Of a stretch of DNA of 64,000 bases, positions 15,881 to 58,984 are shown piece after piece. The stretch comes from an uncultured Enterobacterales bacterium. Lineage in GTDB: Bacteria; Myxococcota_A; UBA796; CAJQPC01. Position numbers and translations under genes: made by a program. The stretch is taken from positions 2,073 to 66,072 of the forward strand of contig CAZFLE010000015.1 of NCBI GenBank assembly GCA_964519895.1. Reading direction: 5' to 3'. How positions within the stretch are numbered: position 1 is the stretch's first letter; each line of letters starts with the position of its first letter. The notes beneath the pieces are model-generated. The model was not told the origin of the DNA. It did not search any database and saw only the letters and a list, made by a program, of their open reading frames with translations.

Positions 15881-15955
15881 GGGCGATTAACTCAGTGGGA
15901 GAGTGCTACCTTCACACGGTAGAAGTCACTGGTTCAAATCCAGTATCGCCCACCA
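15881..15955 (+). tRNA. tRNA-Val (anticodon CAC), CCA encoded
   Basis: A full cloverleaf was folded by hand. Acceptor stem gggcgat/atcgccc. D stem actc/gagt. Anticodon stem ctacc/ggtag with loop ttCACac. T stem actgg/ccagt with loop ttcaaat. Discriminator a, then CCA. Confidence 0.9.
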
Positions 15956-17426
15956 TTTTCGACACCTCTGGGGCTCCGGCCCCGAGGATGTCGAAGACAA
16001 CTGAAGTTTCGGCGGTTCCAAACGACTCGCCGTCGTGGGTGAGCCCGGTCGGGAACACCAGCCGCTGAAGGTGGATGCGGGCCTTGGGATGCAGGTCCGT
16101 CCACAGCGCGGCCGGCTTCGACAGCAGGCGCTCGGCGAACCCGAGCAGGGCGTCCACGTCGAGCTGGTCGTCCTGGGCCTGGTGAAGCTCGATGCGGACC
16201 GCTGCGATGTCGGCGTCCAGCTCGGCCTGCTTCGCCCGGCAGGCCTCCTCGCTGATGACGCGGTCGAGGTACGCATCCACAACCTGCCCTCGGCGTCGCT
16301 CCAGGTCCTGCAGCCGTTTGTGGAGGGCGGCCTCGGCCGCACCGGCGTCCTGGCGACGAGTCCGCCACACGTCGAGGATGACCTCGCGGAACAGCCGCAC
16401 GTACTCGACCCTCGGTGACGCCCGGCACAGCAGCTCCACGAAGGCCTCCTCCATCCGCTCCTTGGGCAGGGACACGCAGCCACTCCGGCGGCACCTGTAG
16501 TAGCCGAAGCGGCCGTTGCGTCCGCGGGAGAAGCTCCCAGTGACCGGCAGATCGTGGTGTGCGCAGCGCACGAAGCGTCGCAGTGGAAAGTCCGGGTGGT
16601 CCAGGAGGTGCGGCGGGGACTTCGGCCCCTTGCGCGTCAGGACGTGCTGAACGGCATCCCAGAGCGCCTCGTCCACGAGCGGATCGAAGTCGCCCTCGAC
16701 GTCGATGGCCCACCTGGGCTCGACGATGCGGCCCTTGTAGATCGGGTTGCCCAGCATGTTGCGAAAAGTCTGGGCGCTCACAGCGTTGCCTCGCCGGGTC
16801 GTCAGGCCGAGGGCGTTCACGTGCCTGCGGACCGCGGCTTGCGAGCGGTGGCCGGTGGCGTACATCTCGAAAGCCAGCCGAACCAGCGGGGCGCGATCGG
16901 AATCAGCAACCAAGCTGGCTCCCGCCCCCGTCCGGGGCTTGGTATACCCGACGGGCGGCTGGTGGGGCCATCGGCCGCGCGCGACCGCGGCCTTCATGCC
17001 GTTGAGCGCCCGCTCCGAGCGCACGTCGTTGTCGAACTGGGCGACCAGGGCCAACATGCCTTCGAGGAACCGGCCTGGTGCGTCATCCTCCAGGTGCTCG
17101 GTCGCCGACCGTAGTTCGATGCCGAGGGTACGCAGTCCGCCGCGCAGCATGTGGTAGTCGCCGACGTTCCGGGAGAACCGGTCCACCTTGTACACGACCA
17201 CGTAGTCGACCTCGGCCTTCCGGTCGGCGCACACTCGCAGCAGCCGGTGGAGCTGGGTCCGGTCCGCCGTCTTGGCGGACTCGCCGCGCTCCTCGAAGAC
17301 CTCCATGACCTGGAGACCGTTGCGCCGGCAGTAGTCGCGGCAGGCGTCGAGCTGGGTCGCCAGGCTCAGGTTCGAGACCTGCTCCTTGGTAGAGACACGA
17401 CAGTAGACGAGGGCGTTGAGGGGCAC
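15912..17426 (-). CDS. Large serine recombinase (integrase)
   Basis: 504 aa. It has a resolvase catalytic N-terminus ALVYCRVSTKEQ, VYKVDRFSRN, a recombinase domain, the Cys-rich zinc ribbon CAHH..YYRCRRSGC, and a coiled coil. The last 14 codons are antisense to tRNA-Val positions 32-75. Confidence 0.9.
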   Translation of the reverse strand: MPLNALVYCRVSTKEQVSNLSLATQLDACRDYCRRNGLQVMEVFEERGESAKTADRTQLHRLLRVCADRKAEVDYVVVYKVDRFSRNVGDYHMLRGGLRTLGIELRSATEHLEDDAPGRFLEGMLALVAQFDNDVRSERALNGMKAAVARGRWPHQPPVGYTKPRTGAGASLVADSDRAPLVRLAFEMYATGHRSQAAVRRHVNALGLTTRRGNAVSAQTFRNMLGNPIYKGRIVEPRWAIDVEGDFDPLVDEALWDAVQHVLTRKGPKSPPHLLDHPDFPLRRFVRCAHHDLPVTGSFSRGRNGRFGYYRCRRSGCVSLPKERMEEAFVELLCRASPRVEYVRLFREVILDVWRTRRQDAGAAEAALHKRLQDLERRRGQVVDAYLDRVISEEACRAKQAELDADIAAVRIELHQAQDDQLDVDALLGFAERLLSKPAALWTDLHPKARIHLQRLVFPTGLTHDGESFGTAETSVVFDILGAGAPEVSKMVGDTGFEPVTSTV

Positions 17427-17656
17427 GGCGGTCTACGGTCCATTGCCGTCGAAGCCACGGCCGCGTCCACGAGGACACGGGCGACGGCGTACATGGCCGC
17501 ACGCAGCTCGGCGAGCTGTCGGGGGGTCAGCTCGGCGGAGCCACGCAGCTCGCTGAATCGTTCGAGGGAGAGCACGGCGGGGGCCTGCTCGCGTCGGGTG
17601 GACGCGGGTTGACCGACCGCTCGGGCTCATCCCGTGGCGCTCAGGGGGCTGCATGG

Positions 17657-18514
17657 TCACTCCTCAGCGGCACGCGGGGTCGTCCCGTCGTGCTCCGAGG
17701 GCTTGGTGTGGACGGTCCGCTCAACATGGAGGATGGAGCCGTCGCGGCGAACGATGCGGAGGTCCTGGTAGTCGTCGGACGCCACCAGGTCGGCCAACTC
17801 GGCGTGGTCGTCGAGCGAGACGCGCTGCGTCGCGGCGACGTGGCGAACCTCGCCGTTCTTCAGGCGGACCTCGACGCGGTCGAAGTCGCCAGACCGGATC
17901 ATCTTGACGACGTCCTGCTCCGGCTTGGACATCAGGTTGCCCATCATGGCGTGGCCCAGTTCGGCCATGAAAGTGCGCCCCCGGCCGTGGCGTGGCAGCT
18001 CGATCGGAGGCTTGCGACAGCGCAAGAGACGCCGGACCAGTGGGTTGACGTTGAGCAGGATGACCGACGGCGGCGCCGCGTCCGGGTCGTTGGACTCCTC
18101 CAAGTCACCGTGCTGAAGCAGGTCGATGATCTCCATCGCTGAGTCCATGACGAAGCGGCTCTTCAGGTCCGTCATCACGAACACCGGCAGGTCCAGCAGC
18201 GCGATCAGCCGGACGGCGGACATGAAGTGATCGGCGCCCTCGTCCAGCATGACGTCGCGGACGAAGCGCAGCGACCCGACGGGCACGCCGTAGCGCTTGC
18301 GGATCTCTGCCATCACCATCAGCGCGAAGACCTGGCGCGGAGTGTAGCGGCGCCATGACTCGCCGCGCCGCTCCTGGTCCGGGAGCACGCCCTTGCCGTC
18401 CCACTCGTTGAGCTGCCGGTACGACAGGTCTGCGGCCTTGCGTACATCGCCGGCGGTGAAGGGTCGGTCGGCCTCGTCAGGCATCGGACATCCAGAATGA
18501 ACGTGAGCGTTCAT
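17657..18514 (-). CDS. MerR-type HTH protein with uncharacterised C-terminal domain
   Basis: The N-terminus FTAGDVRKAADLSYRQLNEWDGKGVL looks like a MerR/excisionase-type HTH. The remaining ~200 aa are unrecognised. The start is at 18514 or 18484. Confidence 0.55.
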   Translation of the reverse strand: MNAHVHSGCPMPDEADRPFTAGDVRKAADLSYRQLNEWDGKGVLPDQERRGESWRRYTPRQVFALMVMAEIRKRYGVPVGSLRFVRDVMLDEGADHFMSAVRLIALLDLPVFVMTDLKSRFVMDSAMEIIDLLQHGDLEESNDPDAAPPSVILLNVNPLVRRLLRCRKPPIELPRHGRGRTFMAELGHAMMGNLMSKPEQDVVKMIRSGDFDRVEVRLKNGEVRHVAATQRVSLDDHAELADLVASDDYQDLRIVRRDGSILHVERTVHTKPSEHDGTTPRAAEE

Positions 18515-18625
18515 TCCTTCTACCGCGCCAGGTCTCCAGCGAGCAAGGGGAAATGTACGGCTCGGTTCAATCCTGCTCGGCTGGCGCGACGGTCGCGTCT
18601 GGTTGCAGCCCGTTGCGCGGACCGA

Positions 18626-19489
18626 TCAGGGCCCGGCCCGTTGGGGCTCCGGCATCCGCGCGAGCGCAGCCAGCCCGAGAGACGCCAGGGTCACACACGA
18701 CAGGGCAGTCAGCCAGGCGTTCCCCAGGACCCAGGCGGCCAACGTCGCCCCGGTCTCGCGCCAGACGATGTAGCCAGCCATGACCAGAACGAAGACGCCG
18801 AACCCGCGGCGAAGCGCCCCCTCGGGGACCCTGGACGCGAGCTTCGCACCAGCAAGCGCACCGACGACGGCGCCGGCGGTGACTGCGGCGGCAAGCTCGA
18901 AGTCGACCGACACATCAGCCGCGTGACCTGCAAACGCCGCGAACGACTTCAGCGCGATCACGAGCAGCGAGGTGCCGATCGCCCTGTGCATGTCCATTCC
19001 GCCAAGGAGAACCAGTGCCGGGACCACCAGGAAGCCGCCACCGGCACCGACCAGCCCGGTGGCGGCTCCCACGATGAGACCCTCGACGATAACCAGCGTC
19101 ACCGGCAGCGACCCGCCCTCCGACCGCCGCGCCGGCGTGCCGCGCCCGCGGAACATCCCGACAGCGGTCGCCACCATCATGGCGGCGAAGAGCAAGAGCA
19201 GCGTGGACCCGCTGAACCAGCCCGCCGCCCGGCCGCCGAGGTAGGCGCCAGCCATCGCCGTGGCGCCGAACAGCAACCCCGTGCGCCACGCGACGTTGCC
19301 CGAGCGTGCATGGGGCACGAGCGCGAAGGCTGAGGTCGTCCCAACGATCAGGAGGGACGTGGCGATGGCCTCGCGGGGCTCCAAGCCCACGGCGTAGGTC
19401 AGGATGGGGACCGCCAGGATCGACCCGCCACCGCCGAGGAGCCCGAGGGCGAGGCCGATGAGAACGGAGAGTGCAACAGCGAGCGCCAC
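18626..19489 (-). CDS. TauE/SafE (TSUP, DUF81) sulfite exporter family permease, copy 1
   Basis: 287 aa, polytopic, with repeated GGGGS/GAGGGF motifs. The GTG start is preceded by GGGAGG. Confidence 0.85.
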   Translation of the reverse strand: MALAVALSVLIGLALGLLGGGGSILAVPILTYAVGLEPREAIATSLLIVGTTSAFALVPHARSGNVAWRTGLLFGATAMAGAYLGGRAAGWFSGSTLLLLFAAMMVATAVGMFRGRGTPARRSEGGSLPVTLVIVEGLIVGAATGLVGAGGGFLVVPALVLLGGMDMHRAIGTSLLVIALKSFAAFAGHAADVSVDFELAAAVTAGAVVGALAGAKLASRVPEGALRRGFGVFVLVMAGYIVWRETGATLAAWVLGNAWLTALSCVTLASLGLAALARMPEPQRAGP

Positions 19490-19491
19490 GG

Positions 19492-19950
19492 CTACCTCCC
19501 CGCTTCAGCGGCGGCGGTGCGAGCGACGCGAGTCGCGGCGAAGCCGTCCAGGAAGTGAACCAGCAACATCCCACCGAGCATGGCTGCGACAAACGTGATC
19601 GCCTTGGGTCCGCCCGGCAGCGCTGAGACCACCGCAGGGCCGGGACAGTAGCCAGCCAGGCCCCACCCCACTCCGAAGAGGGCGGCGCCACCAACCAGCC
19701 GGCCATCGATGTCCCGCCTCGTCGGCCGGCTGAAGGACGTCGAGCACAGCGGCGCTGTTCGATGGTCGATGACCCGACGCAGAGGGGTGTGCACGAGGAG
19801 TGCCCCGACCATCACGACGCCGAGGCTGGGGTCCCACGGGCCAAGCAGGTCCAGGAAACCGACGACCACGTCCGGACGGGTCATCCCCGACACGACGAGG
19901 CCGGCGCCGAAGACCAGCCCGGAGAGAGCCGCTGTGATGAGACCCTTCAC
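19492..19950 (-). CDS. YeeE/YedE (sulfur transport, DUF395) half-protein B, copy 1
   Basis: Its GTG start overlaps the upstream stop (GTGA). It carries the [11 protein letters not shown] motif. Confidence 0.75.
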   Translation of the reverse strand: MKGLITAALSGLVFGAGLVVSGMTRPDVVVGFLDLLGPWDPSLGVVMVGALLVHTPLRRVIDHRTAPLCSTSFSRPTRRDIDGRLVGGAALFGVGWGLAGYCPGPAVVSALPGGPKAITFVAAMLGGMLLVHFLDGFAATRVARTAAAEAGR

Positions 19951-20378
19951 AGCGCACCTCCGAGCACATGGTTGACCGCGAAGGCACTGGCGGCGCCGGT
20001 GCCCATGAACGTCAGGACGCTGGTGAGCGACCGGGGTGACATCCGAGCCAAGCCACACACGCCGTGCCCGCTCGTGCAGCCGTTTCCGAGCCGGGTGCCA
20101 GCCCCGACGAGCAGCCCCGCGACAATGAGAGCGCCGGTGGACCGGGAGAGCGGATTCACGAATGCGTCCGGGACGACCGGGACGAGCAACAGCCCCGCGA
20201 GCACCAACCCGACAACGAAGGCCGCGCGCCAGTGGCGCTCTTGGGTCCGACGCTGAAGCAGCCCGCCGACGATGCCGCTGATCCCGGCGATGCGACCGTT
20301 GAACAGGAGGTACGAGGATGCCGCCAGCCCGATGAGCATCCCGCCGACGAGGGGAGGGAGGAGTGACTGCAGGGTCAT
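19947..20378 (-). CDS. YeeE/YedE (sulfur transport, DUF395) half-protein A, copy 1
   Basis: Its ATG at 20378 overlaps the pdo stop (ATGA). It carries the [12 protein letters not shown] motif. Confidence 0.75.
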   Translation of the reverse strand: MTLQSLLPPLVGGMLIGLAASSYLLFNGRIAGISGIVGGLLQRRTQERHWRAAFVVGLVLAGLLLVPVVPDAFVNPLSRSTGALIVAGLLVGAGTRLGNGCTSGHGVCGLARMSPRSLTSVLTFMGTGAASAFAVNHVLGGAL

Positions 20379-21433
20379 CGTGCTTCTCCTTCGACGGAGG
20401 CCCGGACGACAGGCAGGCCCCGATCGGTCCAGGCCTGCATCCCGCCTGAGACGGAAGCGATCTGGGAGAAGCCACTCGTGCGAAGCCTCTGAGCCGCCTC
20501 GGCCGACCGCCGGCCCGAGTGGCAGATCAACGCGATCCGGTCGTCGGTCGACCACTCGCTCGCGGCGTCAGCGAGCTTGCCGAGGGGGACGCGCTGGGCG
20601 TCAGGCGCGCACCCGAGCGGCCCACAGCACTCCGCGGGCTCGCGGATGTCGATCAGCCGGACGCGGGCCGCGTTCGCGGCGATCCACACGGGGTCGACCT
20701 CCGGGATGCCGGCACCAGTGAGGACGATGGGAAGGCCCGTCGCAGTCGCCCCACACGCCCGGTTGGCCGGCAGGGCGACGTCGATGCGCTTGGGGTACGG
20801 AAGGCCCAGGCCATTCATCAGCGCGATGAAGTCGCCCTCGGAGCGACCATGTCCGAGCCTGGCGTTGTGCCGCTTCTCGTCGCCGACGGTGCTGACGGTG
20901 CGGCCCTTGTAGTCGTGGCCGGGGTAGACGCGGGTGGCGTCCGGCAGCGTGAAGATCTGCTCGTGGACGCGGCGGTAGAGCGTCCTCGCGTCGCCCTCCT
21001 GGAAGTCGGTCCGGCCGCACCCGCCGATCAGCAAGGCATCGCCGGTGAACACCATCGTCTCGTCGAGCGTGACGAAGCTCACGCAGCCCGCGGTGTGGCC
21101 CGGCGTGGCCCGCACCTGCAGGCCGTAGCCGCCGAAGCGGACCACCTCGCCGTGGCCGACGGCCTGGTCGGAGCAGCTGACCCCGGCGGCCTCGCTAACC
21201 ACGGCGAGGCAGCCCAGCCGGTCCCGTAAGGCCGAGGCGCCGGTCACGTGGTCGGCGTGGACGTGGGTGTCGAGAGTGCACACCAGTCGGACCCCAAGGC
21301 TGTCGACGAGCGCAGCGTCCCGGTCGACCTGTTCCAGCACGGGATCGATGATGACTGCCTCACGGCTCTCGGGGTCGGCGAGGAGGTAGGTGAAGGTGGA
21401 CGTGTCCGGGTCGAACAACTGTCGGAAGATCAT
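20375..21433 (-). CDS. Persulfide dioxygenase (MBL fold, ETHE1-like) fused to a rhodanese domain, copy 1
   Basis: The start was trimmed to MIFRQLF to match copy 2. It has the THVHADHV metal motif and a C-terminal rhodanese domain with the active-site loop CHSGRRS. Confidence 0.85.
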   Translation of the reverse strand: MIFRQLFDPDTSTFTYLLADPESREAVIIDPVLEQVDRDAALVDSLGVRLVCTLDTHVHADHVTGASALRDRLGCLAVVSEAAGVSCSDQAVGHGEVVRFGGYGLQVRATPGHTAGCVSFVTLDETMVFTGDALLIGGCGRTDFQEGDARTLYRRVHEQIFTLPDATRVYPGHDYKGRTVSTVGDEKRHNARLGHGRSEGDFIALMNGLGLPYPKRIDVALPANRACGATATGLPIVLTGAGIPEVDPVWIAANAARVRLIDIREPAECCGPLGCAPDAQRVPLGKLADAASEWSTDDRIALICHSGRRSAEAAQRLRTSGFSQIASVSGGMQAWTDRGLPVVRASVEGEAR

Positions 21434-21468
21434 GGCAGAGCCCTCGGAGTGAGACAGCTTGGACAAGA

Positions 21469-21483
21469 GCAACGGGCGTGCCA
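21469..21483 (-). promoter_or_regulatory. Sigma-54 promoter (-24/-12) of sulfur module 1
   Basis: The minus strand reads TGGCACgcccgTTGC, an exact match to the TGGCAC-N5-TTGC consensus. It lies about 35 nt upstream of the pdo ATG. Confidence 0.75.
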
Positions 21484-21554
21484 ACCCCCCGCGGCACGTA
21501 TTTCCGCAGACTTAGGTGGTTGCCTCCAGGCCTCGTATTTCATAGTGTCTCGAC

Positions 21555-22505
21555 ATGACGAAACAACATCGTCCAAAGACTCGGACGTTCCACGGCATGG
21601 TGACCGCCTCGCGGCAGATGGAGCGGCTGTTCGAGCTGGTAGGACGCGTCGCCGAGTCTGGCTCCTCCGTGCTGATCCGGGGGGAGACCGGCACGGGCAA
21701 AGAGCTGGTGGCGCGCGCCATCCACTCCTTGAGCCCTCGGCGGGACGCGACGTTCCGAGCAGTGAACTGCGCAACGCTCACGCCCGAGCTGCTTGCGTCG
21801 GAGCTGTTCGGGCACCGCCGGGGCGCCTTCACCGGAGCTGTACAGGACCGGCCCGGTCTCTTCGCTCTGGCCAATGGCGGCACGCTGTTCTTGGACGAGA
21901 TCGCCGAGATCCCGCTGGACATCCAGGGGCGCCTCCTCCGGGTCCTTCAGGAGCGCTCCTTCGTGCCTGTCGGCGGGACCGATCCAGTCCAGGTCGACGT
22001 GCGCGTCCTCGCGGCCACGCACCGTGCGCTGAGACGCGAGGTCGAGGCCGGGCGCTTCCGGGCCGACCTGATGTACCGGATCCGCGTCGTGCCGCTCTTC
22101 CTCCCGCGTCTGGTCGAGCGCTCCGGCGACATCGAAGCGCTGGCGTGGCACTTCATCGACGAGTTCAACGTCCGCGGGTTCCGCCAGGTCGAGCGCCTCG
22201 CCGCCGAGACCCTCGACCTGATGCACGCTCACGCCTGGCCGGGCAACGTCCGCGAGCTGCGCAACGTCATCGAGCACGCCTTCGTGATGGGAACCGGACC
22301 CGACCTGTTGCCGGGTGACCTGACGCCCGAGCTTCGCGGAGAGCCCCCGCCTGGAGACCCCGCCGACCGGACGGAAGAGAGCGCCGAGCGGGACCGCATC
22401 CTCACCGCGCTGAACCGCGCCCGAGGCCACAAGGGCAAGGCCGCCGAGTACCTCGGGTGGAGCCGGTCGACCCTGTGGCGAAAGATGCGCGAGCAACGAC
22501 TGTAG
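21555..22505 (+). CDS. Sigma-54-dependent transcriptional activator lacking an N-terminal sensory domain, copy 1
   Basis: 316 aa. The AAA+ core starts about 12 aa from the N-terminus ([27 protein letters not shown]). It has a C-terminal Fis-type HTH ([21 protein letters not shown]). Confidence 0.9.
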
Positions 22506-22520
22506 GGCGGCGCTGGACGC

Positions 22521-22961
22521 TCACCAGACCGACAGCAGGTCGTCGAGGGCGCGCTGCTCCGCCGCGTCCCGTGTCCAGGTCTCCAGGCCCGTCAAGACCG
22601 GCCCGTCACGCTTCGGCAGGCCGGCCCGGTCGAGGATGGCGCAGGCAGCGCGGATGCGGGCGCCGGTCTGGACCGAGCTGTCGGCGACGACGCCACGGAG
22701 GAATCGCATCGACTCCAAGGCAGCCGCGCCCACCTCCTCGCGGACCGCCGCCAGGCGCTCGGCTCGCCGGCGCCTCAGCTCCTCTTGAACCGCCGCGACC
22801 TGGAGCCAACGCCAACAGGTGGCTCGATGGACACCCAGCTCCGCCGCCACCTCGGGCACCGTCTTCCCGGCGAGGAGGTGGTCTACAAACAGGTCGTGGC
22901 GGGGCTCAAGCTGGCCCACTTGCACTCCAGTCTGGCCACTCCCCTGCCTGGTGTAAATCAA
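22521..22961 (-). CDS. Hypothetical HTH DNA-binding protein (phage/element-type)
   Basis: LLAGKTVPEVAAELGVHRATCWRWL is a clear HTH. The start codon is uncertain (TTG at 22961 or an internal GTG). Confidence 0.45.
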   Translation of the reverse strand: MIYTRQGSGQTGVQVGQLEPRHDLFVDHLLAGKTVPEVAAELGVHRATCWRWLQVAAVQEELRRRRAERLAAVREEVGAAALESMRFLRGVVADSSVQTGARIRAACAILDRAGLPKRDGPVLTGLETWTRDAAEQRALDDLLSVW

Positions 22962-23080
22962 GCAGTGCAGTCCTCCCAGGCGGGCACAATGGCCTCATGA
23001 GGCCCTCCCAGAGCCCCGTATCTGCTGCTCAACGATGGAAAGCCGCAAGTTCTCGACCTCCGAGAGCCACCCCCACACCC

Positions 23081-23150
23081 GGTTCCAACTCGGAGTGATT
23101 TGGCCCACCATCGATTGGCCCCGTCAAAGCCTACCTTTGACGGGGTCTTT
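23081..23150 (+). repeat. Degenerate tRNA 3'-tail-like remnant R1 plus terminator-like hairpin
   Basis: The tail ggttccaactcggagtgatttggcccaccatcga is followed by the hairpin ccccgtcaaag..ctttgacgggg and a T-rich run. The unit is paralogous to the one at 23976-24039. Confidence 0.5.
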
Positions 23151-23187
23151 CGTTCTTCCGCTCCACGTGCCCTACCGGACGCCCGAA

Positions 23188-23598
23188 CTACTCCGGTAGC
23201 ACGCGGAGAGCCGGGCAGTGTCTGGGCGCGACCGTCCGCATGTGTCGGTGGTCCAGACTGATGACCACGTCCGTGCCAAGACGCTCAGCGAGGGCAATGA
23301 CTGATGCGTCCGTGCCTCCGAGCGGGAAGGACGCGTACTGCTCCACCAACTCGGCCATCCTCGAGAGATCCTCGGGCCTCGGCCCCTCGACGTCAAAGTC
23401 CGACAGTCCCCGCAAGAACTCCGCTTCCACCCTCGCTCCCATTCGCGAACCGATGAGGTAGGTCGCCTCGGCGACGACCATCGCCGGGATGAGCAATCGC
23501 AGTCCGGGCGTCCGGAGCGCAGCGACGCAGGCTTCGTGATCCGCGTCGTCGGCGTCGACCGCCGCATACAGCGGACCCGTGTCAACGATCGCCAGCAC
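23188..23598 (-). CDS. vapC: PIN-domain toxin VapC (module 1)
   Basis: LAIVDTGPLYAAVDADD at the N-terminus, GGTDASVIALAE, and the C-terminal SLDHRH match the PIN acidic residues. The GTG start was chosen 17 nt inside the antitoxin gene. Confidence 0.75.
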   Translation of the reverse strand: MLAIVDTGPLYAAVDADDADHEACVAALRTPGLRLLIPAMVVAEATYLIGSRMGARVEAEFLRGLSDFDVEGPRPEDLSRMAELVEQYASFPLGGTDASVIALAERLGTDVVISLDHRHMRTVAPRHCPALRVLPE

Positions 23599-23824
23599 CG
23601 GTCCACTCCCGCGCGAGGATCTCTTCGGCTTTCCGGGCGGTGTGGCGCTGCCCGCTGCGCCCGATTCCGGCGAAGGGGAGGGCGCGAGGTTCCTCGTCGT
23701 CGAGACCGAGGGCGGCGGACAGAGCCCGGCGAACGACATCGGAGACCGACGTACCTGCGCGCTCCGCCCGACGCGCGAGGACGACGGCCATCTCTTCCGG
23801 CAGCGAAATGGTGATGCGATGCAT
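23582..23824 (-). CDS. Ribbon-helix-helix (CopG-like) antitoxin
   Basis: 80 aa. MHRITISLPEEMAVVLARRAERAGTSVSDVVRRAL is a canonical RHH. An AT-rich direct repeat (agtatgaagtatg, read on the minus strand at about 23821-23833) spans the start codon and the first few upstream bases. Confidence 0.75.
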   Translation of the reverse strand: MHRITISLPEEMAVVLARRAERAGTSVSDVVRRALSAALGLDDEEPRALPFAGIGRSGQRHTARKAEEILAREWTGAGDR

Positions 23825-23900
23825 ACTTCATACTACATCATCATCTGAGGGCGGGCAAGTCGCGTCAATCGTCCGATCAGGTCGCCGTCCCAACCCTCCC

Positions 23901-23921
23901 GGTCCAGGTTCGCCCACCATC
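23901..23921 (+). repeat. tRNA 3'-tail-like remnant R2
   Basis: ggtccaggttcgcccaccatc shares ccaggttcgcccaccatc with R3 and is followed by the imperfect hairpin ccctgcc..ggcgggg. Confidence 0.5.
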
Positions 23922-23975
23922 AAACCCTGCCGACGAGGCGGGGTTTCTTGCTCTGGCCACTGCCGGACGCCGGCC

Positions 23976-24003
23976 GGTTCAATCCAGGTTCGCCCACCAT
24001 CGA
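23976..24003 (+). repeat. tRNA-Val 3'-tail copy R3 (candidate attR / displaced original tRNA end)
   Basis: ggttcaatccaggttcgcccacca compares with the tRNA's ggttcaaatccagtatcgcccacca. There is one indel and two substitutions by hand alignment. Confidence 0.6.
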
Positions 24004-24007
24004 CCGA

Positions 24008-24039
24008 GCCCGTCAAAATTCATCTTCGACGGGCTTTTT
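24008..24039 (+). terminator. Rho-independent terminator following remnant R3
   Basis: The stem gcccgtc/gacgggc has a 13-nt loop and is followed by ttttt. Confidence 0.65.
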
Positions 24040-24131
24040 CGCGTCCTTGTCTGGCGCGACCATGCTGGACGTTCGAACTCTGGCCCGCCTGGCACTGAGC
24101 ACGGAACTTCACTATCGGTTAAGATTCGTGC

Positions 24132-24680
24132 ATGGGGGCAACCGGACCATCGTGGGACCAACTGTACGAACATGCCGTCGCCCAGGCCGGGTATTTCACC
24201 ACCGCGCAGGCAGCGGAGGCCGGCTACTCGTCGCCACTGCTGCACAAGTACCTCGCCAACGGCAAGGTCATGCGCATCCGTCGCGGCGTGTACCGGCTGG
24301 CACACTTCCCGGCGGGCGACGACGAGGATCTGGTGGTGCTCTGGCTCTGGAGCGACCGCGAAGGCGTGTTCAGCCACGAGACCGCGCTGGTCCGCCACGA
24401 GCTGTCCGATCTGCTGCCGCACGACGCCGAGATGACGGTGCCGCCATCGTGGCGGCGTCGACGGCTGCGGGTCCCCATGGGGCTGCACCTCCACTTCGCG
24501 CCCGTCCCCGCAGGCGAGCGCACCTGGTATGGCGCCGTGCCGATCACGACCGCCGCCCGCACCATTCGGGACTGCCGAGCCGCAGGTGTGTCGCCGGAGT
24601 TCGTTGACCAGGCCATTCGGCAGGGCGTTGGGCGAGGGCTGTTCACGGAGGGCGAGGTTGGCAACGGGGGCAGGTCGTGA
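24132..24680 (+). CDS. AbiEi-family antitoxin / transcriptional regulator (type IV TA)
   Basis: GYFTTAQAAEAGYSSPLLHKYLANGKVMRIRRGVYRL matches the AbiEi N-terminal winged-helix pattern. It overlaps the toxin gene by 4 nt. Confidence 0.8.
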   Translation: MGATGPSWDQLYEHAVAQAGYFTTAQAAEAGYSSPLLHKYLANGKVMRIRRGVYRLAHFPAGDDEDLVVLWLWSDREGVFSHETALVRHELSDLLPHDAEMTVPPSWRRRRLRVPMGLHLHFAPVPAGERTWYGAVPITTAARTIRDCRAAGVSPEFVDQAIRQGVGRGLFTEGEVGNGGRS

Positions 24681-25579
24681 AGCGCTACGCCACGCCGCTC
24701 GCCTTCAAGGAGGCGCTCGAAGCCCGGCTCCGGGCGGCGTCTCGGTCTGGCGGCCAGGAGCAGAACCGGCTGCGGATGCGCCTGCTGATGGACCGTTTCG
24801 CCGCGCGCGTGGTCCATGAGTACGGCGAGCACGTCGTGCTCAAGGGCGGCGTCGTACTCGAGCTCCGCCTGTCAGAGGCCCGTGCGACCAAGGATCTCGA
24901 CCTTCGTCTGGTCGGCGACCCCGATGCCACCCTCACCAGGCTCCAACGCGCCGGCAGAGAGAACCTCGGGGATCACCTGGCGTTCGAGGTCGGGCCCGAC
25001 CCTCGCCACCCCACGATCGAGTCGGAGGGCATGCAATACCAGGGGCTCAGGTTCCGCGTTCAGGCCCGGCTCGCCGCCAAGGTCTACGGTGGCCCCTTCG
25101 GGGTCGACGCCGCCTTTGCGGAGCCTTTGGTGGGCGACCCCGAGCTGCTGCGTGGCTCCGAGTTCCTCGCCTTCGCCGGGGTCGAGCCGCCGACCCTCCT
25201 AGTCTACCCGCTGGAGGCGCACATCGCAGAGAAGCTGCACGCCTACACGCTGCCCCGCTCGCGTCCGAATTCCCGGGTGAAGGACCTGCCCGACCTTGCG
25301 CTGCTCGCCAGGGTCCGGCCCATTGATGCCGTCACGCTGCGGGACGCTCTCGATAGGACCTTCGCGCATCGAGCGGTTCACACGGTCCCCACCGAGGTAC
25401 CCGACCCGCCCGAGGCATGGCGAGTGCCGTACGCACGGTTGGCTCGTCGGGACCGCCTGCCGTGGATCGACCTCGCCGCGGTGGCCGAAACGACCCGAGC
25501 CTTCCTCGACCCCGTACTCTCCGGCGGTGGGGGGCTCTGGAGTCCCAGCGCCTGGCGGTGGGAGGCCGAAGAGCCCTGA
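24677..25579 (+). CDS. AbiEii/AbiGii nucleotidyltransferase toxin (DUF1814)
   Basis: 300 aa with the VLKGGVVLELRL..ATKDLDL nucleotidyltransferase motif and family-typical length. Confidence 0.85.
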   Translation: MKRYATPLAFKEALEARLRAASRSGGQEQNRLRMRLLMDRFAARVVHEYGEHVVLKGGVVLELRLSEARATKDLDLRLVGDPDATLTRLQRAGRENLGDHLAFEVGPDPRHPTIESEGMQYQGLRFRVQARLAAKVYGGPFGVDAAFAEPLVGDPELLRGSEFLAFAGVEPPTLLVYPLEAHIAEKLHAYTLPRSRPNSRVKDLPDLALLARVRPIDAVTLRDALDRTFAHRAVHTVPTEVPDPPEAWRVPYARLARRDRLPWIDLAAVAETTRAFLDPVLSGGGGLWSPSAWRWEAEEP

Positions 25580-25842
25580 GCGGATTCACAGCATGGCGCC
25601 GAGCGCGCGAACGTGGAAGATCCAGGCGCCGTCCCATCCCTCCGCTTCGACCCAGAAAGTTCGAACGTCGTCCAAGACGGCCCACCATCTCAGAGCAGCC
25701 GCTGGAGCCGATCCAGCGGCTGTTGCTGCTTCGCGTCGTGAACCAGTGCTAGCAGCGTCGCTTCGCCCAACTGCAGCCTGCCGCTCGCACAGCTCGTTGA
25801 CGTCGCCTGTGAACACCTCTACGTTGATGGCAGAGAACTACC

Positions 25843-26097
25843 ATGAGTACTACCATCGATTCTGCCGGAAGGTTGGTCATCCCCAAGGCCGTGCGCGACG
25901 CGGCCGGTATACAGCCAGGCACCCCCCTTGATGTGCGCTTCCGGGACGGGCGCATCGAGGTCGAGCCCGTGCCTCTCGACGTCACTATCGAGTCCGTCGG
26001 TGGCGTCGCCGTCGCCACGCCACGGGAGCCCGTCGACACGTTGTCGGCCGCGGCGGTCTCAGCCACCCGCGGCCGCCTGCGCGACGAGCGAGGCTGA
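25843..26097 (+). CDS. vapB: AbrB/SpoVT-fold antitoxin (VapB-like, module 2)
   Basis: SAGRLVIPKAVRDAAGIQPGTPLDV is a canonical SpoVT/AbrB swapped hairpin. Confidence 0.8.
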   Translation: MSTTIDSAGRLVIPKAVRDAAGIQPGTPLDVRFRDGRIEVEPVPLDVTIESVGGVAVATPREPVDTLSAAAVSATRGRLRDERG

Positions 26098-26116
26098 CCT
26101 GACCGCGGGCACCGCC

Positions 26117-26545
26117 TTGGACACCAGCGTCATCATCCCGGCGTTGCTGGCGTGGCACGAACACCATGGTGCAGCACTTCCCGTCGTCACCGAAGCCCTG
26201 GCCCAGGAAGAGCAAGCCATCCTCCCGCTACCCGCGCTGATCGAGGCCTACGCTGTGCTCACTCGTCTCCCAGCGCCATGGCGGCTGCGTGCCTCGGACG
26301 CTCACCGACTGCTGGTAGACACCTTTCGTGGCAGAGTGCGGGTCGTCGGCCTGGATGCAGACGACGCCTGGTCCCTCCTGTCCCAGGTGGTCACCAACGG
26401 CGTGTCGGGCGGCGCGACCTACGATGCCCACATCGCGGCATGTGCCAGGAAGGGCGGTGCCGGGCGCCTCGCCACCTTCAATCGTCGCCACTTCGAGCGC
26501 CTCGATCTCGGTGCTGTCGCCCTGTGGGTGCCGTCGGTCCACTGA
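26117..26545 (+). CDS. vapC: PIN-domain toxin VapC (module 2)
   Basis: LDTSVIIPALL at the N-terminus, GGATYDAHIAACA, and the C-terminal TFNRRHF. The start is ambiguous (TTG at 26117 or CTG at 26099) and lies just after the antitoxin stop. Confidence 0.7.
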   Translation: MDTSVIIPALLAWHEHHGAALPVVTEALAQEEQAILPLPALIEAYAVLTRLPAPWRLRASDAHRLLVDTFRGRVRVVGLDADDAWSLLSQVVTNGVSGGATYDAHIAACARKGGAGRLATFNRRHFERLDLGAVALWVPSVH

Positions 26546-30472: not shown

Positions 30473-30487
30473 GCAACGGCCGTGCCA
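30473..30487 (-). promoter_or_regulatory. Sigma-54 promoter (-24/-12) of sulfur module 2
   Basis: The minus strand reads TGGCACggccgTTGC, an exact consensus spacing, in the same position relative to pdo as in module 1. Confidence 0.75.
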
Positions 30488-58887: not shown

Positions 58888-58984
58888 GCGGCTGTCGACT
58901 CCCCTGGTCCGAGCCCGCGCCCCGACCTCCTGGAGTCTGGCACGAATGTTGCTTGCAGGCAATGACCGCCGCTGCCGGAAGCCT

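Follow-up and report, generated by a model that had tools for sequence, protein, structure and literature searches.

The DNA analysed here, referred to below as the window, is a 64,000-nucleotide stretch of contig CAZFLE010000015.1. Its sole tRNA gene, according to ARAGORN, is a tRNA-Val(CAC), and a gene for a large serine recombinase (LSR) converges on this tRNA and continues into it on the opposite strand. The region that follows, up to about 23.1 kb, very probably constitutes an integrative element inserted by this recombinase. The features that delimit it are listed first.

15881-15955, + strand: tRNA-Val(CAC), host B arm of attL (ARAGORN; Rfam 68.7 bits, gathering score 29).
15912-17426, - strand: large serine recombinase, integrated form, 504 amino acids (Pfam, PHROG, alignment).
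15948-15956: common core GCCCACCAT in attL; the same 9 bp recur at 23103-23111.
15956-15997, + strand: putative P' arm of the element, a hairpin directly 3' of the tRNA (fold -29.7 kcal/mol, z -6.2).
15956-23110: putative integrative element, 7155 bp (junctions with shared core).
23081-23111, + strand: putative attR, composed of the P arm GGTTCCAACTCGGAGTGATTTG and the core GCCCACCAT and followed by the host terminator (motif and spacing match).
23117-23147, + strand: intrinsic terminator of the tRNA (host B' arm), which the insertion would have moved (terminator scan; -27.3 kcal/mol, z -7.1).

The domain and site features tested on the recombinase were all found, and on this sequence evidence the enzyme belongs to the large serine recombinases. 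Pfam recognizes a Resolvase domain (PF00239, 5e-34, residues 5-153) and a Recombinase domain (PF07508, 8e-16), and the best PHROG match is family 95 'integrase' (1e-82). The catalytic residues R10 and S12 are invariant across 30 homologs (alignment A1). Most homologs have a recorded recombinase zinc ribbon (PF13408); the window protein gives a weak match to it (0.0045), with three of the four cysteines retained and a histidine at the fourth position.

The C-terminus of the LSR reads ...KMVGDTGFEPVTSTV*. Its last 14 codons and stop (15912-15955, …MVGDTGFEPVTSTV) are antisense of tRNA-Val, the tRNA-antisense codons beginning at ...MVGD, and the TGA is the complement of TCA at 15912-14, inside the anticodon loop. 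The tRNA, on which ARAGORN and Rfam agree, the converging 504-residue LSR with its 14 antisense codons and the position of its stop are thus as a first-pass annotation of this DNA had described them. With the crossover predicted inside the terminal 8 nt of the tRNA, the host encodes every one of the 14 final codons, and the completion of the open reading frame (ORF) by the host tRNA is a stronger case than that annotation could know.

The two junctions, attL and attR, share only the 9-bp GCCCACCAT, which is made up of the 8 terminal nt of the tRNA and one further base, and no tRNA half is present in the element. The T-arm of tRNA-Val, GGTTCAAAT, starts 25 nt from the CCA end. At the right junction, the sequence GGTTCCAACTCGGAGTGATTTGGCCCACCA (23081-23110) has the motif and the spacing found in viral free forms of related elements, combined with the tRNA-Val end. 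The P arm plus core pattern matches only once in the window, at this position, and not at all in 100 shuffles. The opposite strand of the P' arm provides the codons of the variable linker of the LSR. A terminator homologous to 23117-23147 is found directly after tRNA-Val in another contig, L164.

On this sequence evidence, it is highly probable that 15956-23110 is an integrative element, put at the extreme 3' end of tRNA-Val(CAC) by its own LSR. Strand exchange would take place inside the 9-bp core present at both junctions. attL would be composed of the host tRNA, the core and the P' arm of the element, and attR of the P arm, the core and the tRNA's own terminator. The tRNA would stay intact, and the element would neither carry nor rebuild a tRNA half. 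Excision is predicted to create the attP junction CCGGTTCCAACTCGGAGTGATTTGGCCCACCATTTTCGACACCTCTGGGG (also ...GGAGTGATTTGGCCCACCATTTTCGACACC...) and the attB junction ...TCAAATCCAGTATCGCCCACCATCGATTGGCCCCGTCAAAG. A compact LSR-driven element at tRNA-Val had already been proposed in the first-pass annotation; this is borne out, with a length of 7155 bp. As a separate observation, the P' hairpin may stand in for the displaced tRNA terminator or for a processing signal.

A protein search with the LSR retrieved 993 relatives at E ≤ 1e-10. The best 120 of these 993 show 42-59% identity and are nearly all full-length, and 102 of the 120 have tails with G[FILV]EP (…GFEP…), the antisense of the tRNA T-arm GGTTCGAATCC. 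We then considered 80 loci from species-representative genomes, whose hosts include Acidobacteriota, Myxococcota, Verrucomicrobiota, Nitrospira (Nitrospirota), Planctomycetota and others. A complete tRNA lies antisense to the ORF end in 64 loci, and in 60 of these in one reading frame. The tRNAs hit are mostly Glu-TTC (25 loci), Lys-CTT (13), Ala-GGC (13) and Glu-CTC (9), more rarely Arg (2), Lys-TTT (1) and Asn (1). Since most loci overlap a whole tRNA, nearly always in the same frame, the ORF-tRNA overlap, as judged from these sequences, defines a large clade and is no peculiarity of the window. Furthermore, the clade seems to have been repeatedly retargeted among tRNAs, with its specificity in about 10 bp of the acceptor stem. 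At the tRNA-Lys loci (L031-L043 and others), the integrated ORF crosses almost the whole tRNA (…GIEPSTRRLRVCCSAN*); hence, the length of the resident-form tail depends on the tRNA hit.

When the terminal 22 nt of the tRNA were searched for with up to 4 mismatches, no second occurrence turned up within 10 kb in any of 62 loci. This ruled out a repeat of the tyrosine-integrase type, and a search for a short core was begun. In 12 family loci, the last 9 nt of the locus' own tRNA, with GGTTCCAAC at -30, were present 4-10 kb from the tRNA. Behind one tRNA-Ala element (L060) lie four tandem copies of P arm plus core about 0.9 kb apart (flipped coordinates 18529, 19445, 20359 and 21216), about 7.0-9.7 kb upstream of the recombinase start. 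Two of the four have identical flanks, and the copies could represent an array of mini-modules or repeated partial insertions.

A crossover at the anticodon loop was also considered, as suggested by partial tRNAs that break there (L029, L051, L052, L072, L021). It was rejected because the break in L029 was made by a later element carrying a tyrosine integrase and MobA. This 7.5-kb element (L029 11475-19235) has genes for a MobA relaxase and for a tyrosine integrase, the latter again with an ORF that runs across the tRNA. By entering tRNA-Glu at the anticodon loop, it displaced both the serine-recombinase element and the 3' half of the tRNA, so that two integrase families compete for one tRNA.

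Comparison of tRNAs and P arms revealed a constant difference in spacing. The distance to the CCA end is 25 nt for the start of GGTTC(G/A)A in tRNAs and 30 nt for the start of GGTTCCAA in P arms; the start of GGTTCNAA at -30 in P arms versus -25 in tRNAs holds in the window and at 15 other sites. The P-arm motif GGTTCCAA thus mimics the T-arm common to all tRNAs, GGTTCAAA, at a distance from the core that is greater by 5 bp. A similar shift is known for the Listeria integrase, whose attP half-site comprises 25 bp with a zinc-ribbon-domain motif at about positions 16-24, this motif lying 5 bp nearer the centre in attB than in attP (Rutherford 2013, PMC3783163). To place the crossover, the 25-bp/20-bp half-site frame of that study was transferred to the window sites, which it fits without adjustment. 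The central dinucleotide would then be located at about -6/-5 from the CCA end, within the 9-bp core, and GGTTCNAA would be the zinc-ribbon motif, read in attP and attB at two spacings. Since one half-site would be the universal T-arm, the clade could hop between tRNAs.

A further sequence of this kind was seen within the recombinase gene. The Gly-Thr of the conserved LSR FGT motif is encoded GGAACC (window 16016-16030; also in L083 and L086), so that the tRNA strand reads GGTTCC there, about 65 nt past the core. Three examples were read, and they may reflect codon chance or an accessory site.

Free and empty forms were found among the relatives. In two viral contigs of 42-46 kb that carry the enzyme (L083, L086), the homolog ORF does not end in tRNA antisense and represents the attP form; the DNA …GGTTCCAACTCGGTGTGAGAAGGTCCACCA… shares only about 10 nt with the 3' end of tRNA-Ala. 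A third homolog is located on a 5931-bp contig, L169, which is circular, as indicated by its 30-nt terminal overlap. Here, the P arm, GGGGACGCCA and P' are joined without a tRNA, and about 10 nt are shared with tRNA-Glu. As for the empty site, a metagenome scan for the predicted right flank yielded L164, in which a 98.7% identical tRNA-Val is followed directly by TCGATAGACCCCGTCAAAG…, homologous to window 23103-23164. For this comparison blastn and direct reading were used, tblastx of L164 against the window giving GC-rich noise only. The empty tRNA-Val site that the first-pass annotation expected in related genomes is represented by this contig, where tRNA-Val joins directly to the sequence following 23110. 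Collectively, all four site types, attL, attR, attP and attB, are seen in the data across relatives.

Several points weigh against this reconstruction. The evidence is of sequence only, and the circular form is known from the relative L169, not from the window element. L164 is not a pristine empty site, as it contains another recombinase-less module, whose end is a P-type remnant of degenerate sequence. Two copies of the terminator-like B' are present in the window (at 23.1 and 24.0 kb, 75% alike), so that more than one order of insertions would fit. Lastly, inspection by eye revealed no convincing inverted copy of GGTTCNAA in the P' or B' arms.

Since the core lies inside the LSR ORF, excision replaces the tRNA-encoded tail with another C-terminus. 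In the integrated state, the LSR beyond …KMV would be read from host DNA and would end with 12-20 residues from the antisense of the targeted tRNA. In the free state, the ORF would run into the P arm, the core lying about 25 codons before the ORF end, so that integration would swap the C-terminus. In the window, the alternative tail is assigned as follows.

22995-23110, - strand: coding sequence of the alternative C-terminus, predicted to be joined to the LSR after excision (...KMVGQITPSWNRVWGWLSEVENLRLS...; reconstruction).

Free-form tails were observed in L083, L086 and L169 and reconstructed for 12 loci and the window. The alternative tail of the window aligns without gaps with the tails of 18 other P arms or attP forms (19 in all). 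The consensus, of about 25 residues, is x-S-x-x-x-x-SWN-x-(V/I/L)-x-x-WL(R/K)-x-L-x-x-LR-x-AA-stop. Read in the frame of the recombinase, the tails stop 23-29 codons after the core in 13 of 18 cases and never earlier, while the other two frames have stops dispersed over codons 1 to 38. Ala-Ala terminates 9 of 15 tails and Ala 12 of 15, and database proteins with non-tRNA tails ending in -AA also exist (P0049, P0059, P0061, P0069, P0090, P0107).

At the DNA level, upstream conservation has a 3-nt period and reaches about 70 nt past the core, well beyond a 25-bp half-site. A second conserved block, CCGnAGCCA, is the antisense of Trp-Leu-Arg, in which only the third position of Leu is free. For codons 10-23, which lie outside any 25-bp half-site, the summed column entropy is 17.8, 15.3 and 21.1 at codon positions 1, 2 and 3, respectively. 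This coding-type conservation of the sequences argues for protein-level selection on the free-form tail. In the AlphaFold model of P0107 (mean predicted local distance difference test score, pLDDT, 85), the zinc-ribbon fold ends near residue 484, residues 482-499 are disordered and a helix of modest confidence spans 500-516; a long helical hairpin at 340-419 corresponds to the zinc-ribbon coiled coil.

The best-surviving alternative accepts the same junctions but regards the passage of the ORF across the core as neutral: the LSR would be complete before the core, and the tails would be untranslated or irrelevant read-through in GC-rich DNA. Indeed, the peptides GFEP and PSWN are antisense readings of DNA motifs that are conserved as DNA, the zinc-ribbon fold ends about 15 residues before the core with a linker predicted to be disordered, and the comparable dsiB/ssrA overlap was judged unlikely to be functional (McMurdie et al., PMC3146451). 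On the other hand, neutral read-through does not account for conservation that extends past the half-site, for the 3-nt periodicity and the free third position in the WLR block, or for a fixed stop with strongly enriched Ala-Ala ends. Furthermore, the variable linker ahead of the core is free of stops in every family member, and the great majority of members read into the tRNA (102/120), almost always in one frame (60/64). We therefore consider neutral read-through unlikely, though it deserves to be weighed.

Our preferred explanation of the tail, on the contrary, assigns it a role. It could be a regulatory module, acting as an ssrA-like degron and/or as a helix that modulates the reaction controlled by the coiled coil. 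In the free circle, the enzyme would carry an amphipathic helix and an ssrA-like Ala-Ala end and would be short-lived and/or tuned for integration. Insertion would then provide the tRNA-encoded tail and, with it, a stable resident enzyme of other directionality or activity. In this way the recombinase would report its own integration state via its C-terminus, a self-contained switch that would be independent of a recombination directionality factor.

The role of the tail faces objections of its own. GFEP and PSWN being the antisense of motifs that the enzyme must bind, part of the apparent protein conservation is DNA conservation. The tail helix of P0107 has a pLDDT of about 58-66, and because of this low confidence we do not claim a docking site. 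In addition, the free-form tail of the window is atypical, with 37 codons, an end in …GRAS instead of …AA, and TPSWNRVWGWLSEVENLR retained; this tail may have drifted while integrated, and the element may be decaying. Our confidence in the function of the tail is thus clearly lower than in the structural model: that the free-form tail functions at all is a tentative proposal with nearly as much for it as against it, and its more specific version, a degron or directionality switch, is rather doubtful.

The region to the right of the element is of importance for a second alternative. Four tRNA-end remnants, each followed by a hairpin, are found at 23081-23110, 23895-23919, 23976-23999 and 25658-25687. 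They separate the block of the LSR and the sulfur operon, a VapBC-like pair, an 80-bp stub and an AbiEi/AbiEii pair. Besides the first, which is the attR described above, two of them were characterized.

23976-23999, + strand: tRNA-Val 3' fragment from the T-loop onward, GGTTCAATCCAGGTTCGCCCACCA (tRNA-type spacing).
25658-25687, + strand: remnant with P-type 30-nt spacing and the variant motif AGTTCGAACGTCGTCCAAGACGGCCCACCA (AGTTCGAAC…), located after AbiEi/AbiEii (related copies in L164 and L168).

According to this second alternative, which was the reading of the first-pass annotation, the tRNA and the 24.0-kb copy bound the element, which brings its own tRNA 3' half to rebuild the gene, and the displaced end of the original tRNA lies at 23976-24003. 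The copy itself was correctly recognized: GGTTCAATCCAGGTTCGCCCACCA, a 24-nt near copy of the tRNA 3' end, is followed by a terminator (23976-24041; hairpin and U-run, -17.8 kcal/mol, z -3.3), and long tRNA-derived direct repeats are the classical signature of islands (Islander, PMC4383910). However, the P-arm motif with the right 30-nt spacing and the core is located at 23081-23110, not at 24.0 kb, and the LSR pairs with this first remnant, not with the third. The 24.0-kb copy has the tRNA-type spacing and mispairs with the tRNA 5' half, owing to two substitutions and a 1-nt deletion in the T-loop. Its counterpart in L166 reproduces the tRNA perfectly from T-loop to CCA and has the same foreign end in front, which differs from that of the LSR element. 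Moreover, the joining seen in L164 already points to the interval 15.9-23.11 kb, no more than about 10 nt of tRNA are present in the circular relative, and the family loci are devoid of a 22-nt tRNA-end repeat within 10 kb. An element that rebuilds the tRNA with its own T-loop/acceptor copy is thus improbable; of the right ends named in the first-pass annotation, 24.0 kb was given up and 23.1 kb, mentioned there only as an alternative, proved to be the attR (23081-23111). The 23976-23999 fragment marks another, older kind of insertion, that of the VapBC module.

The least credible alternative is that the LSR is a passenger (a resolvase or invertase) on an island built by others, for instance by a lost tyrosine integrase at a tRNA hot spot: although the locus is indeed a hot spot with remnants of different types, and a tyrosine-integrase element sits in the same kind of tRNA at L029, 64 loci from several phyla keep the 3' end of the LSR at a constant place and in a constant frame with respect to the core, attR has the geometry of LSR sites, P arm and recombinase gene are joined in the circular form, and no tyrosine recombinase (PF00589) is encoded between 15.9 and 23.1 kb.

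The placement of the element at 15956-23110 by its own LSR, which we favour over these alternatives, leaves the other remnants as traces of separate events. The remnant at 25658-25687 is probably the attR of an earlier serine-recombinase element; its related copies in L164 and L168 adjoin the same terminator family. The 10-mer TCGCCCACCA is present 8 times in the window versus 0.33 expected, and was therefore considered as a possible dispersed repeat. This was rejected since the five matches outside the locus lie in ordinary coding sequence and lack tRNA-like flanks, which indicates a local hot spot and removes the dispersed-repeat explanation raised in the first-pass annotation. The interval 23188-26545 itself is a string of small modules, with a VapBC-like PIN/antitoxin pair (23188-23831), AbiEi/AbiEii (24132-25579) and MazE/PIN (25843-26545). 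Each module ends in a tRNA-end remnant and a hairpin, so that the interval looks like a zone of defence and toxin-antitoxin accretion, with repeated insertions of at least two site types.

Within the element, the genes other than that of the LSR are as follows.

17366-17575, - strand: conserved small ORF (core of about 60 amino acids, VLSLERFSELRGSAELTPRQLAELRAAMYAVA...; homologs in the same position).
17657-18514, - strand: MerR-type helix-turn-helix protein, 285 amino acids (PF13411, 7.5e-06).
18626-19489, - strand: TauE/SafE exporter (Pfam; gene calls on L001, an identical contig).
19492-19950, - strand: DUF6691 protein (Pfam; gene calls on L001).
19947-20378, - strand: YeeE/YedE-type Sulf_transp protein (Pfam; gene calls on L001).
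20375-21433, - strand: metallo-beta-lactamase-fold and rhodanese fusion (Pfam; gene calls on L001).
21469-21483, - strand: sigma-54 -24/-12-like box TGGCACGCCCGTTGC (TGGCAC-N5-TTGC) upstream of the operon (consensus match only).
21555-22505, + strand: sigma-54-dependent activator (AAA+, Fis-type helix-turn-helix), divergent from the operon (PF00158, 6e-66; PF02954, 4.5e-14).
22521-22961, - strand: small helix-turn-helix protein at the right end of the element (PF13384, 2e-06).

The small upstream ORF is a recurrent companion of the recombinase: it occupies the same position in about 60 of 74 loci, often abutting the LSR start, and its product follows the pattern MLSxxxCRxLLGPxxxLSDxEIxxLRxxLYxLA. 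No Pfam or PHROG family matched this protein of about 60 residues. ORF 17433-17660 was also tried as the conserved upstream gene and rejected, as the homolog lies in another frame, 17366-17575. A MerR-type protein beside the LSR was likewise detected by tblastn in L005, L055, L024, L074 and L078. Candidates for a directionality factor are the upstream protein, the MerR-like neighbour or the tail itself.

The cargo, an operon at 18626-21433 on the - strand, is likely sigma-54-activated and, with its persulfide-dioxygenase-like metallo-beta-lactamase-rhodanese fusion and its YeeE/YedE-type and TauE transporters, likely handles reactive sulfur; its substrate and regulation are read from family names. 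The domains and the sigma-54 box agree with the sulfur operon, rather than phage genes, that the first-pass annotation had described, and self-regulated detoxification fits at the same family-name level. Further TGGCAC-N5-TTGC boxes are located at 30473-30487 (- strand) and 58938-58952 (+ strand), which fits a sigma-54-using, non-actinobacterial host of high GC content (about 68-70%). The cargo of other delimited elements is unrelated and includes VRR-NUC, DUF2330, a MacB/FtsX permease, a Ser/Thr kinase and DUF4041-T5orf172, and L170 carries RepA_C and MobC/NikA genes. The elements of this family are small cargo elements, some of them plasmid-like, and not phages, the enzyme being present on viral contigs as well.

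tRNA genes are textbook targets of tyrosine integrases. The serine-integrase element of the window has an in-ORF crossover and a target logic that is out of the ordinary, with hundreds of undescribed relatives in soil bacteria. This large, phylum-spanning clade of serine integrases would target tRNA genes by a different logic than tyrosine integrases do: the T-arm would be read as a half-site and mimicked in attP at a shifted spacing, with exchange in the last few bases. With such an exchange no copy of the tRNA need be carried, and islands of this type would escape repeat-based island finders. The in-ORF crossover, together with a tail present only in the free form, suggests that the integration state could set the stability or the directionality of the integrase, and the control of directionality in serine integrases is of practical interest for genome engineering. 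Furthermore, these small elements (4-10 kb) appear to move adaptive cargo in poorly studied soil phyla, sulfur detoxification here and nucleases, kinases and ABC permeases elsewhere. If retargeting among tRNAs works as supposed, the clade could provide integrases that nature has made programmable, with conserved tRNAs as 'safe harbours'.

Among known systems, the LSRs of phages (Listeria A118/LI, Bxb1 and phiC31; PMC3783163) have the same order of catalytic, recombinase and zinc-ribbon domains with a coiled coil, as well as simple sites with the zinc-ribbon motif shifted by 5 bp between attP and attB. They differ in that their attB lies in protein-coding or intergenic DNA and their attP outside the int ORF. 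A search of solved structures (PDB) gave no close relative of the LSR, only N-terminal matches (E 1e-7 to 1e-11), and no match covering at least 80% of the query was found among INPHARED phages and PLSDB plasmids. The tycheposons of Prochlorococcus are also small cargo-carrying elements, and 27 of 937 tycheposons and cryptic elements are reported to have an LSR in place of a tyrosine recombinase (Hackl et al., bioRxiv 2020.12.28.424599). Compared by description, the parts of that report consulted here mention neither a recombinase ORF across the att site nor a tail swap.

Islander-type islands (PMC4383910) resemble the window element in the tRNA target, the adjacent integrase, the functional tRNA kept and the tandem accumulation. 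However, they carry a tRNA fragment of tens of nt, and hence a long direct repeat, as compared with 9 bp here. With neither a tyrosine integrase nor a long tRNA repeat, the window element is not of the Islander type. As of 2015, according to the Islander paper, no serine recombinase was known to use a tRNA gene as its target (PMC4383910). The literature searched describes neither a tRNA-targeting clade of serine integrases nor a serine-integrase tail swap; later catalogues (TIGER 2020) were outside this search, and prior cataloguing is possible.

An att site inside an ORF has precedents among tyrosine-integrase phages. In BPs-type mycobacteriophages, attP lies within an ORF and the viral and prophage C-termini differ: integration removes a C-terminal degradation tag from the repressor, and Int itself is tagged (Broussard & Hatfull, PMC3694055). 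There, the split gene is that of the repressor and the integrase is a tyrosine recombinase, whereas here the LSR itself is split and the role of its -AA tag would be analogous. Another parallel is offered by IntP/IntX of the myxophage Mx8, whose attP is within the integrase ORF, so that integration creates a new 3' end (Tojo 1996; Magrini 1999; PMC6070905). The altered Mx8 integrase is still active and behaves differently, and was proposed to be a switch for prophage stability (PMC6070905). Mx8 Int is, however, a tyrosine recombinase of a phage of about 50 kb, in contrast to the serine recombinases with simple sites on mostly 4-10-kb cargo elements described here; the changed activity of its prophage form was shown experimentally, whereas our tail forms are known from their sequences.

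The closest described system is the DsiB module of the Dehalococcoides ssrA islands, here compared by description, not by sequence (McMurdie et al. 2011, PMC3146451). DsiB is a CcrB-like LSR of about 500-540 residues, encoded beside attL and transcribed toward the tRNA-like gene; the window LSR and DsiB each resemble CcrB weakly. The dsiB ORF always overlaps attL and has its stop outside the island, as is the case in the window. These islands are also small, cargo-bearing and often tandem, with a short non-homologous motif before the far-end repeat. McMurdie et al. regarded the dsiB overlap as without function and did not describe a free-form tail. The DsiB module comprises six genes, with the small recombinase DsiA and RecF-like, ParB-like and Mom-like proteins, none of which is in the window element. 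A small serine recombinase of the DsiA type is present in some relatives (L169, L017, L019): in L169, it has about 233 residues, lies near the contig junction (5153-5931 continuing into 1-866) and is reminiscent of DsiA/CcrA partners, and in L017 and L019 the second-recombinase matches beside the LSR are weaker. Finally, the two systems differ in their targets, with insertion into the T-loop of the ssrA tmRNA and a 20-bp repeat in Dehalococcoides, and a 9-bp core at the acceptor/CCA end of tRNAs in the clade described here.

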